Positions 5,438 to 40,579 of a stretch of DNA of 44,771 bases are shown one piece after another. Below the pieces are notes generated by a model. It had not been told where the DNA came from, ran no database searches, and was given only the letters and a program-made list of their open reading frames with translations. Source of the DNA: a virus; UHGV virus genome UHGV-0180729. The stretch is one strand, 5' to 3'. The position numbers were made by a program, and so were the translations under genes. Each line of letters begins with the position of its first letter. Position 1 is the stretch's first letter.

Positions 5438-7678
5438 CTATTCCAAATCCTCCTCTGTCACTGTCAACATTTCATTCGGTTCGTATATTGTCTTCGGTCT
5501 TAATCTATCCCCTATTCTTTCAGGTATACGATATGTTCTCGGTACTACTTCGCCGTTAGCATCGCAGCCAAGCATTAGTTCACCATCTTTCAACATTTTA
5601 TCAAGATGGGTGTTAGTCACAGAGAAGTCACCAGAACGGGCCACTATCTGCTGCTGAGTAAAACCGCGGCCTGTGTCGTCGGACTGTTGCAGGTCTTCCA
5701 GCGCGGCGAGTATTGACTCCTTCCTTCCTTCATCCTTCCCGCGTTTTACAGCATTCTTTACGTTTTCTTTACCTTCCTTTGTCAACCCTTCTTCCCGCTC
5801 TTTCTCCTCATCAGTCTTGAACGGCTCGAAGCCCCACGGCATCAGCACAAGCGCCTTGTGCGGCTCAGGCAGGTCGAGGTTTACGATTGTGCCGTATTCC
5901 TCTGTGCTACCCAGGAACTCAACCGCGCGGTATTCTTTCGGCGGTGGCGCTTCACGGAACTGTACCGACTCCAGCACCATACCAACCGTCTTCTGTTGAG
6001 GCCCGTGCTTAAATTTAGAGTGGTATACATTTATCTGACGGTCGGTAGCGCGCTCAATTGTCAATTCCACATCAACGCCTGCATACAGAGCGCCACTACC
6101 TCTGGCCTTCTTTCCGCCTTTCGGTGTGTGGTGAACAACGCCTACCGCGGCTTTAGTCGCGTCACGCACTTCTTTCAGGATGGCGATAACCTTACCCATA
6201 CCGATTGCCGTCGATGAACTGTTCTCGTCGAACTTATCAATCGTCAGAGCCAGCGTCTGGTTGAGGGTGTCAAACGCAACCATGCCAATAGGCTCGTCGC
6301 CCGCAGTTTCGCGCATCAACTTAATCAGGCTTTTCAGTTTGCCCACTTCACCCATGTCGATGACATGTACATAATCTTTACCTTCCTCGCCATATTTAGC
6401 CGCGAGTGCGTCGATACGTGTACGTGTAGCGGCACCACCCTCGCCATCGATATAGAAGTGATGGCAACGCTGGGTGTCAGCGCCTGCAAACCGGTACCCG
6501 GCGGCGCTAAGATACATCATCCCCAGCGTATAGAACGATTTGTACGTGCCAGATTCCCCGACAATATCCCAGATACAATCTGACGGCATGTATCCCTCAA
6601 CGACGAAATCAGCCTTTACCGGTTCCGGTAACTCGTCCTCCTCTGAGTCTTCGTCATCTTCCAGGTCGTCGAGACTGCATGAAACGGACTCACGTGCACC
6701 CCATCCGATAGCCTCTGCGACTTCACTGAACGGCAGCCCGGTCGCGTCACACGCATACTTCCACACCTCCTTCGGCGACATGCCTTCGGTCGCCGTGATG
6801 TCGGTGTCGTGAATCATGGTTACGTTCGGCGCTTCATATCCCTCGCGCGGGAAACACAGCAGGAAGTCGTCCGGGCGTGGCGCCGGGTCGCTGTAGTTTT
6901 CTGCGTGTTCTGGCGTAGCTGGCATCTTCAGGCCGCGCGGCGTCATGATACCGCCGTACTCAAACGCCAGTGCCTCGAACGCATCGGTAAACGCGGTGCG
7001 CAGTTCTTCCGGTATCTGGTAATCCGATGCGCTGCTCACCTCGTAATCAGGTACGCCTTCCAGCAACTCGTCAGGGCTAATCAGGTCGTTGCGGCGTGAC
7101 CAGATAACGGTAGAGCCAACCGGCGGCAGGTACATCGGCTGTGACAGAGTAAACCCGCTGCGGTCAGCGCCCATGCCTTTGAAGAAGTACTCAAGCAATC
7201 CGTGACGAACGCGGATGATGTCGCCACCCTCAACCGGGCGGGCCAGCGGCATGACGACGCGAAAGCGTGGCGACTCCTCGGTATGTGATGCCGTGGTGTA
7301 GAGGCACATCGCCAGGCGGCTGCGTTTAACCAGGCGCACAGCTTCCTGATACTCTTCCGGCGTCGCACTGTCGAAGTCCAGATACGCCAGCGACGATTTG
7401 CTTACAGACGCGTCACAGCGGTAAAACAAGCCTTTACGCGCCTGCTTAAAGTCACCAGTTTCCGGGTCTTTTACGGTGCTGTGCGTTGAGTCGCACGCGG
7501 CGGTGATATAGCCGGGTGCGGTCTTCGGGTTAATCCCGTCACGAACGGAATCGAGCGGCTGGATTAACTCTTTCAGGTCGTCCAGTGTTGCCGTGTGTGT
7601 GGTTCTGACGTTTATATCCTTTTTCTCTGCCCGTGCGTTGCGACGAGACCACGAGTAGGATAAAATTACATCGGACAT
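5438..7678 (-). CDS. Primase-polymerase / P-loop helicase fusion (AAA_25-like RecA-fold ATPase with N-terminal PrimPol-like domain)
   Basis: 746 aa; Walker A GESGTYKS; N-terminal LAYLDFD-type acidic motif; internal acidic tract DDLEDDEDSEEDE; ends in TEEDLE. Confidence 0.6.
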   Translation of the reverse strand: MSDVILSYSWSRRNARAEKKDINVRTTHTATLDDLKELIQPLDSVRDGINPKTAPGYITAACDSTHSTVKDPETGDFKQARKGLFYRCDASVSKSSLAYLDFDSATPEEYQEAVRLVKRSRLAMCLYTTASHTEESPRFRVVMPLARPVEGGDIIRVRHGLLEYFFKGMGADRSGFTLSQPMYLPPVGSTVIWSRRNDLISPDELLEGVPDYEVSSASDYQIPEELRTAFTDAFEALAFEYGGIMTPRGLKMPATPEHAENYSDPAPRPDDFLLCFPREGYEAPNVTMIHDTDITATEGMSPKEVWKYACDATGLPFSEVAEAIGWGARESVSCSLDDLEDDEDSEEDELPEPVKADFVVEGYMPSDCIWDIVGESGTYKSFYTLGMMYLSAAGYRFAGADTQRCHHFYIDGEGGAATRTRIDALAAKYGEEGKDYVHVIDMGEVGKLKSLIKLMRETAGDEPIGMVAFDTLNQTLALTIDKFDENSSSTAIGMGKVIAILKEVRDATKAAVGVVHHTPKGGKKARGSGALYAGVDVELTIERATDRQINVYHSKFKHGPQQKTVGMVLESVQFREAPPPKEYRAVEFLGSTEEYGTIVNLDLPEPHKALVLMPWGFEPFKTDEEKEREEGLTKEGKENVKNAVKRGKDEGRKESILAALEDLQQSDDTGRGFTQQQIVARSGDFSVTNTHLDKMLKDGELMLGCDANGEVVPRTYRIPERIGDRLRPKTIYEPNEMLTVTEEDLE

Positions 7679-7735
7679 GTTGTATTTCCTTCAGCAAGTA
7701 ATTTGGCCTCGGCGCTCTAACGTCGGGGCTTTCTT

Positions 7736-7969
7736 TTATTCCAGGTCTTCTAAGGTGGCGGTCATTCCGCGAACTTCTGCAACGGCACTATATTTCCCGC
7801 CAACATTTCTCACGACACCGGATTTAACCAGTACACGTAACGACGCTTCAATAATGGCGGAACTATAGTACTTAAAATAACTACGGCGCAAGTCGATAAC
7901 GCTGCATGACCTTTTTTTACGTGTTAACGAAACGACTGCCGTAAATACGCGCGACTGGAACTCGGTCAT
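7736..7969 (-). CDS. Hypothetical protein (ends in LEDLE)
   Basis: 77-aa ORF; ATGA overlap with upstream HTH gene. Confidence 0.45.
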   Translation of the reverse strand: MTEFQSRVFTAVVSLTRKKRSCSVIDLRRSYFKYYSSAIIEASLRVLVKSGVVRNVGGKYSAVAEVRGMTATLEDLE

Positions 7970-8136
7970 TTCACGTTCTCCTTAATCCATGCTTCCACTT
8001 TCTCCGGGTCAAACGTACCCGGCTGGCGACGGCCCATAATGCGGATACAACAATCAGGAAACTTCCCACTCTTTAACCAGTTATTCAGCGTGCGACGGGT
8101 AACCCCGATACGCTCAGCCACCTCATTCTGCGTCAT
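7966..8136 (-). CDS. AlpA/Xis-like helix-turn-helix DNA-binding protein
   Basis: Start taken at ATG 8136 (MTQNEVAERIGVTRRTLNNWLKSGKFP) with GAGGG Shine-Dalgarno. Confidence 0.6.
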   Translation of the reverse strand: MTQNEVAERIGVTRRTLNNWLKSGKFPDCCIRIMGRRQPGTFDPEKVEAWIKENVK

Positions 8137-8168
8137 TCTCAAACCCTCATTATCAGTTAACGAAACCA

Positions 8169-40413: not shown

Positions 40414-40418
40414 AACTA

Positions 40419-40439
40419 AGGCCCCAAACGGGGCCTTTT
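40419..40439. terminator. Bidirectional terminator
   Basis: AGGCCCC AAAC GGGGCCT followed by TTTT. Confidence 0.7.
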
Positions 40440-40441
40440 CT

Positions 40442-40579
40442 CTACTCTTCTGCCAACTTCTCAAGTACAAACGCCAGTTGCGCATTAGCGGCGTCTCTTT
40501 GCTGCCGCAGTCGTAGAACCTCTTCTTCTAGTTCCTTGATACGTTTTTGTAATGCCGGAATCGGGGCTATGATGTTCAT
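40442..40579 (-). CDS. Small coiled-coil protein (45 aa), last gene of the minus-strand replication operon
   Basis: MNIIAPIPALQKRIKELEEEVLRLRQQRDAANAQLAFVLEKLAEE; ATGA overlap with the Toprim gene. Confidence 0.35.
   Translation of the reverse strand: MNIIAPIPALQKRIKELEEEVLRLRQQRDAANAQLAFVLEKLAEE

Follow-up and report, generated by a model that had tools for sequence, protein, structure and literature searches.

The viral genome UHGV-0180729 (44,771 nucleotides; its full length is called the window below) encodes two proteins of different primase-type folds, a helicase-primase whose N-terminal domain is predicted to be an archaeo-eukaryotic primase (AEP) and a smaller Toprim protein, and this analysis deals with their likely parts in replication. 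The helicase-primase gene has 89 to 91% nucleotide identity to more than 100 Escherichia Kagunavirus (Guernseyvirinae) records. Both ends of the window fall within one gene; when they were joined, an unbroken Pol A of 725 residues was obtained, and the end-to-end junction was contiguous, in one piece, within the DNA polymerase genes of 95 related phages. Therefore, the window is a circularly permuted complete Kagunavirus genome, and coordinates of the replication block that wrap around its ends are meaningful.

The block lies on the minus strand from 40576 to the window end and continues from 1 to 7678 (Table 1). By position, it contains the genes for the Toprim protein and an SNF2-like helicase, two small open reading frames (ORFs), the genes for VRR-NUC, Pol A, a single-stranded-DNA-binding protein (SSB), an HNH_3+AP2 endonuclease and an exonuclease, and then a ProQ-C-like protein, several small ORFs and the helicase-primase. 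The replication proteins that a sequence-only reading of this DNA had named are all present on this strand, at or near where it had placed them, together with the HNH endonuclease, which it had not listed. The family assignments are statistically solid, with the exceptions of VRR-NUC and the N-terminal "PrimPol" domain of the helicase-primase. Indeed, two primase-type catalytic folds, two helicase types and two PD-(D/E)xK nucleases coexist here, just as had been read from the sequence. The toolkit had also been called unusually rich, but the same module was found in about 420 Guernseyvirinae records; Enterococcus phage phiFL4A also has PolA, an AEP-helicase, VRR-NUC and an SNF2-type helicase, and corynephage BFK20 has a related set of PolA, AEP-helicase, an annotated DNA helicase and an exonuclease. 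The combination of Pol A, gp2.5-type SSB, Cas4-like exonuclease, VRR-NUC and SNF2 helicase is thus ordinary for the subfamily.

Table 1. Features of the replication block and its flanks, in the order in which they follow across the joined window ends
Feature	Positions	Strand	Details
45-aa coiled-coil ORF	40442..40579	-	PHROG 5915; after Toprim gene, ATGA overlap
Predicted stand-alone DnaG-type primase RNA-polymerase domain ("mini-DnaG")	40576..41091	-	171 aa
SNF2 helicase stop overlapping Toprim start	41088..41091	-	ATGA
SNF2-family (SF2) ATPase/helicase	41088..42518	-	476 aa; SNF2-rel_dom E = 2.7e-12; PHROG 62 E = 6.6e-167
VRR-NUC PD-(D/E)xK nuclease	42946..43230	-	94 aa
Family A DNA polymerase, C-terminal part	43583..44771	-	PF00476 E = 1.1e-15; wraps window end
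Family A DNA polymerase, N-terminal part with 3'-5' exonuclease region	1..989	-	start codon at 989
gp2.5/Enc34-type SSB	1049..1675	-	208 aa; PF10991 E = 7.3e-16; PHROG 112
HNH_3 + AP2 homing endonuclease	1736..2266	-	176 aa; between SSB and exonuclease; outside replisome
DUF2800/PD-(D/E)xK (Cas4-like) exonuclease	2233..3474	-	413 aa; PHROG 69
Replicative helicase-primase	5438..7678	-	746 aa; PHROG 3228 "replicative helicase-primase" E = 4e-301
Helicase-primase architecture			AEP domain, acidic linker, RepA/DnaB-like helicase, C-terminal region
AAA_25 RecA-fold (RepA/DnaB-like, SF4-type) helicase domain	6113..6625	-	residues 352-522
Predicted AEP (PrimPol-type) catalytic core	7034..7456	-	residues ~75-215
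Small helix-turn-helix (HTH) DNA-binding protein	7966..8169	-	PHROG 66/597/8; syntenic with Ent1 gp45 "putative DNA-binding protein"

The helicase-primase

Searches of Pfam and NCBIfam with the N-terminal 345 residues of the helicase-primase gave no match, even at E <= 10, and the same was true of its C-terminal 220 residues at this threshold. The curated AEP families (Prim-Pol PF09250, BT4734-like_N and similar) have no model that matched the domain. Since a word-indexed homologue search with the N-terminal domain returned only 3 proteins, an exhaustive HMMER search of 1.84 billion representatives was performed, which gave 155 homologues sharing a common core (residues ~75-215). Their consensus, R..NV..LDxD...YTTxSHTxExPRxRV..PL.RP...D..S..SQ.Y.P, contains the AEP motifs I (D101/D103), II (S131/H132) and III (D172). 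Among 151 aligned homologues, D101 was conserved in 145, D103 in 146, S131 in 121, H132 in 132 and D172 in 104; R140 was conserved in 150. In other proteins the domain is fused to PriCT_1, PriCT_2, DUF5906, VapE-like, D5_N, DUF3987 or AAA_25, all of which are usual partner modules of AEP primases; BT4734-like_N matched 1 of 91 homologues, and PriCT_1 or PriCT_2 was found on others. An AlphaFold2 model built from 63 sequences had a pLDDT (predicted local distance difference test) score of 87, with values above 95 across the core, and a fold search found the AEP catalytic fold in the domain. Single-sequence searches of the PDB yielded nothing for this domain or for the Toprim protein, and a match of the domain in a PDB profile search was discarded as a designed-repeat artefact. 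Because fold search and family conservation agree, the N-terminal domain is predicted with confidence to be an AEP with motifs I (DxD), II (SxH) and III (D) intact. The by-eye call of a "PrimPol-like DxD" motif, which Pfam does not see, was thereby borne out, and the domain is primase-related.

The helicase domain was matched by AAA_25 of Pfam (E = 2.1e-17; 63.8 bits against a cut-off of 27) and has Walker A and Walker B motifs, the latter reading ..VAFD. Walker A is GESGTYKS (residues 373-380, window 6538-6561), with Tyr in the usual place of Gly before the Lys; close relatives have AESGAYKS or ARTGSFKT, that is, Tyr or Phe before the Lys. An aromatic residue at this position of the P-loop is unusual for RepA/DnaB-type helicases. 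The domain is 25% identical to that of BFK20 gp43 (E = 2e-9).

The helicase-primase (5438-5461) and the Cas4-like exonuclease (2233-2256) share their terminal seven residues, ...VTEEDLE; in the Jerseyvirus Ent1 the helicase-primase ends in ...TTEGDLE and the exonuclease in ...NVTEEDL. Also, the acidic segment DDLEDDEEDE near the C terminus of the SSB (1049-1110) has a motif in common with the linker of the helicase-primase (DDLEDDEDSEEDE, about 6635-6673). Acidic tails of T7 gp4 and gp2.5 dock on the polymerase. By analogy, the shared tails suggest that helicase-primase, exonuclease and SSB may have a common docking partner.

A search for an origin or iterons near the helicase-primase gene gave only short repeats at chance level, plus one 25-nucleotide pair at 5116-5184. 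The two copies (TAATAGCGAACTATTCACTTGTCAA and TAATATGGTACTATTCACATATCAA) are direct repeats 44 nucleotides apart, in the gap that separates the helicase-primase gene from the genes downstream, and on both strands strong matches to sigma-70-like promoters overlap them. The pair may be an operator. The HTH protein, a candidate regulator or origin-binding factor by inference only, is encoded two ORFs upstream of the helicase-primase, in the same direction of transcription.

The Toprim protein and its optional gene

The Toprim protein matched Toprim_2 of Pfam just above the cut-off (22.9 bits against 22.1) and PHROG 849 "DNA primase" with E = 3e-48. It consists of an N-terminal primase-specific subdomain and a Toprim domain with the conserved Glu and the DxD metal-binding motif, and in an alignment of 15 family sequences E90, D133, D135, D153, D155 and E156 were invariant. 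The AlphaFold2 model was very confident (pLDDT 94.7). It matched DnaG-type primase RNA-polymerase domains over 153 to 161 of the 171 residues, whereas the Toprim nuclease RNase M5 was matched over only 88 residues; matches in BFVD were phage DnaG-like primases. The closest structural neighbours are not nucleases, and the protein does not have the make-up of the Toprim nucleases RNase M5, OLD/GajA and AriB (a Toprim domain by itself or combined with an ABC-ATPase or DUF4435). The protein is thus predicted to be a DnaG-type primase core and not a member of a nuclease family, and its active site argues for nucleotide polymerization and against cleavage.

This core appears to stand alone. The match to the RNA-polymerase domain fills all 171 residues and no CxxC...CxxC motif of a zinc-binding domain was found; a helicase (DnaB) interaction domain or a fusion to a helicase is absent as well, the sequence stopping about 15 residues past the last Toprim helix. 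Among the ORFs of the genome there is one plausible Cys-rich candidate for a zinc-ribbon partner in trans, at 10520-10936, which is unlinked to the Toprim cassette. This plus-strand ORF (CVNC...x33...CCKC; PHROG 6094) is the only plausible zinc-ribbon-like one and belongs to a gene block downstream of the divergent region 7678-8700. Sequence profiles of the Toprim family gave only an insignificant match to a DnaG Toprim domain in the PDB (E = 1.4), and hhalign against the T7 primase fragment was not significant. When 185,579 genomes of bacteria and archaea were scanned with a pattern of the family, no confirmed locus emerged, and we found no literature on the gene in Guernseyvirinae.

T5-like phages are the other main home of the mini-DnaG family. 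T5.076 has 172 residues, is 48% identical over its full length, and is encoded at 37279-37797 in the tRNA region of T5. The viable strain T5Mos carries a deletion of 30661-38625 (PMC11464382). T5.076 falls inside this deletion, as verified by checking the coordinate system against a tRNA-Lys fragment. T5 has a separate zinc-ribbon primase of 296 residues, T5.121, encoded between the DnaB-like D6 helicase and the polymerase. Hence, T5 represents a second phage family in which a complete primase is present besides the mini-DnaG and the latter can be lost in the laboratory. Further homologues were found in jumbo Erwinia phages and a few IMG/VR contigs. In the jumbo phages (gp49/gp50 of Erwinia phage Simmy50 and other Agricanvirus records) the match to the homologue is broken into two parts, and two neighbouring ORFs are annotated there; a split gene, a frameshift or an intervening sequence could be the cause.

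A megablast search with the Toprim gene gave 65 phage records (Salmonella 37, Escherichia 23, Kagunavirus 2, Raoultella 2, Jerseyvirus 1), whereas the helicase-primase was found in 109 records of the Kagunavirus type and in about 420 Guernseyvirinae records. When the 3' end of the SNF2 helicase gene, the Toprim gene and the downstream sequence were used together as the query, many relatives matched in two pieces, with exactly the Toprim gene missing. In the window and in TH07 the 516-bp gene is flanked by ATGA overlaps on both sides, and the alignment shows the indel to be exact. Relatives that do not have the gene carry the 45-residue ORF directly after the helicase, with an identical ATGA overlap; in BUCT825, for example, the helicase stop overlaps the start of this conserved ORF (…AAATGA followed by ACATCATAG…). 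The SNF2 helicases of K1H and Ent1 are each 96% identical to that of the window, and the Toprim gene is missing from both. At this site K1H carries a pair of unrelated small ORFs, and its whole 41.6-kb genome contains no Toprim homologue (best tblastn E = 1.3); in Ent1 a 56-residue ORF takes the site, and no homologue was found within the replication half examined. Because most relatives that retain the rest of the replisome do not have it, the Toprim gene is best regarded as an accessory cassette and not as the core primase.

Where the gene is present, the ratio of nonsynonymous to synonymous substitutions (dN/dS) is 0.04 to 0.13, that is, it is under strong purifying selection, and the gene therefore appears to be functional. 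Its nucleotide identity is 97.3 to 97.9% to genes of Salmonella phages, of which Jerseyviruses are the best matches, and at most 96.5% to those of E. coli phages. Since the nearest matches lie in Salmonella phages while the N-terminal domains of the helicase-primases of Kagunavirus and Jerseyvirus are only about 58% identical at the protein level, this distribution points to horizontal exchange of the Toprim gene between the genera.

Other genes of the block

The SNF2-like helicase scored 46.8 bits with SNF2-rel_dom (cut-off 24.9) and 18.1 bits, under the cut-off, with Helicase_C; its sequence matches in the PDB were ATPases of the Snf2, Sth1 and SsoRad54 type, and no homology to T5 D10 was detected. 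VRR-NUC remained under the cut-off of its Pfam model VRR_NUC (E = 3.2e-4; 21.2 bits, cut-off 23.8) and matched PHROG 93 "endonuclease" (E = 2.6e-33) and PHROG 5702 "Holliday junction resolvase" (E = 1e-19). The exonuclease was identified by DUF2800 (E = 5.9e-68, 230 bits) and PDDEXK_1 (E = 5e-8, 33.6 bits), and its C-terminal Cys cluster CQWCRFSEQC forms a CxxCx5C motif. The HNH_3+AP2 endonuclease gene overlaps the 3' end of the exonuclease gene by 34 nucleotides; K1H has no endonuclease at this position, where SSB and exonuclease genes are 86 nucleotides apart. Ent1 carries inteins in its helicase and polymerase that the window does not have.

Next to the block, similarity of the plus-strand tailspike (gene at 38338-40413) to known tailspike families is confined to its N-terminal ~130 residues. 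Immediately past a conserved bidirectional terminator (AAAAGGCCCCGTTTGGGGCCTT; 40414-40441), its 3' end departs from the K1 endosialidase tailspikes of K1H, BUCT825 and TH07, which looks like a swap of the receptor-binding module. An antisense ORF of 277 residues (39531-40364) was rejected as probably spurious, because it is contained in the tailspike gene.

Proposed division of labour and comparison with known systems

We consider the block to be the standard replication/recombination module of a Guernseyvirinae siphophage (a coliphage of the genus Kagunavirus), in which the AEP-helicase would be the core primase-helicase and the Toprim protein an accessory that replication does not require; to this reading as a whole we give a probability of roughly 0.7. 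The scheme that we infer, enzymatic activities included, is as follows. The AEP domain would synthesize primers while the fused RepA/DnaB-like RecA-fold helicase, as a hexamer, would open the fork; the primers would be handed to the phage Pol A, and the gp2.5-type SSB would cover the single strands. The SNF2-like translocase, VRR-NUC and the Cas4-like exonuclease most likely serve branch remodelling, junction resolution and end resection for recombination-dependent replication. In DnaG-type primases the zinc-binding domain selects the template site. The Toprim protein probably contributes auxiliary RNA priming of low specificity, or another oligoribonucleotide synthesis, under conditions that are absent from routine culture. 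Candidates for its biological role are priming, either auxiliary or for restart together with the SNF2 translocase, a conditional function in counter-defence, or something else. Of the two solutions put forward in the sequence-only reading, the one with the Toprim protein as the real primase and the PrimPol-helicase as an initiator fits poorly with a gene that is missing from most relatives; the other, in which one of the two was repurposed, for example as a nuclease, fits no better, since both folds are predicted to be of the primase type and neither to be a nuclease.

Several observations weigh against the AEP-helicase as core and the Toprim protein as accessory priming enzyme. The Walker A motif of the helicase is atypical. 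An invariant ESxxK (residues 90-94, window 40810-40824) replaces the EGxxD of DnaG and T7 primases throughout the mini-DnaG family, T5.076 included, so that one classical acidic position is a Lys, and T7-type primases (T7 gp4) that lack the zinc motif lose template-directed priming. Because of this replacement and of the missing zinc-binding domain, primase activity of the Toprim protein is not assured. The dispensability in T5 was seen on laboratory hosts only. Moreover, in more distant phages of 40 to 46 kb a Toprim homologue that is 55 to 57% identical again follows an SNF2 helicase that is 66 to 71% identical, with an overlap of 4 nucleotides in one lineage and 1 nucleotide in the other. 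This similar divergence may mean that the pairing is old and functional and not a casual insertion, and if it is old, repeated loss of the Toprim gene is as plausible as gain.

Among the alternatives, a role of the mini-DnaG outside replication, in counter-defence or host takeover, seems unlikely; in such a role it might synthesize oligonucleotides that serve as decoys or signals, or it might disturb host DnaB/DnaG or those defences that detect replicating phage. The sporadic distribution, the cassette-like indel with its signs of exchange between genera, and the failure of the pattern scan to find a homologue in bacterial genomes would agree with this, as would its occurrence in phages of three types that are unrelated and differ in their replisomes (Guernseyvirinae, T5-like and jumbo Erwinia phages), in T5 within a dispensable accessory region. 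However, the gene lies within the replication module of Guernseyvirinae-like phages and is translationally coupled to it, and the protein has a primase-type active site. A true division of labour, with the AEP-helicase only initiating at the origin or priming the leading strand and the Toprim protein as the true lagging-strand primase, is very improbable in our view. The complete DnaG-type catalytic core, the strong purifying selection and the cotranslation with a helicase of the replication module in close and distant relatives speak for such a division, but about 85% of the Guernseyvirinae genomes with the same replisome, those of K1H and Ent1 included, have no Toprim gene; the protein lacks a zinc-binding or helicase-docking domain; and its T5 homologue can be deleted from a phage that has its own replisomal primase. 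Least probable of all is a repurposed nuclease such as RNase M5, OLD/Gabija GajA or PARIS AriB: Toprim domains do act as nucleases, the T5 homologue lies among tRNA genes and a Lys takes the place of the second acidic residue of EGxxD in the family, but the fold comparisons given above point to primases.

If the AEP-helicase is the core enzyme, the priming function kept by every member of the group would reside in the helicase-fused AEP domain and not in the Toprim protein, and the database label "DNA primase" on the 171-residue protein should not be taken to mean the replicative primase. We further propose, as a speculation with rather poor odds, that the T5.076-like mini-DnaGs form a distinct, phage-restricted class of free-standing DnaG cores without a zinc finger that is horizontally mobile among virulent enterobacterial phages, across three replisome types (AEP-RepA in Guernseyvirinae, DnaB plus DnaG-like in T5, and jumbo), and conditional in function. 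If this were true, the pattern of a dispensable yet strongly conserved gene would fit origin-independent restart priming with the SNF2 translocase or, alternatively, an anti-defence role via synthesis of small RNAs. The lasting interest lies in an uncharacterized, widely shared zinc-finger-less DnaG core that is optional in at least two phage families and could reveal a noncanonical use of the primase fold.

The fusion of an AEP with a RepA-like helicase is a known phage architecture, with BFK20 gp43 as the exemplar (PMC4889955); the AEP domain of gp43 acts as a dNTP-dependent primase and polymerase (PMC4538821). Both BFK20 gp43 and the window protein have an N-terminal AEP and an AAA_25 helicase, the helicase domains are homologous, and both genes lie near those for a family A polymerase, an exonuclease and a second helicase. 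The AEP of BFK20, however, belongs to Prim-Pol PF09250 and that of the window to another family, for which Pfam has no model, and no sequence similarity was detectable between the N-terminal halves of the two proteins. In RSF1010, the RepB' primase and the RepA helicase are separate polypeptides, whereas they are fused in the window; RepB' also needs the ssiA/ssiB sites and the initiator RepC, and no equivalent sites were found in the window. The cyanophage S-2L PrimPol (AEP domain, PDB 6zp9) has 13% identity to the AEP of the window; since the phage of the window has a separate Pol A, its AEP need not be the bulk polymerase.

The Toprim protein differs from the T7 gp4 primase fragment and DnaG in having no zinc-binding and no helicase or DnaB-interaction domain and in carrying ESxxK instead of EGxxD; the sequence similarity is not significant, and the protein is about half the size of the DnaG catalytic core. 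Its closest counterpart is T5.076, annotated as "DNA primase", a direct homologue in PHROG 849 of nearly the same length (172 versus 171 residues). T5.076 is a solitary gene of the tRNA region with promoters of its own, whereas the Toprim gene of the window is translationally coupled to the SNF2 helicase.

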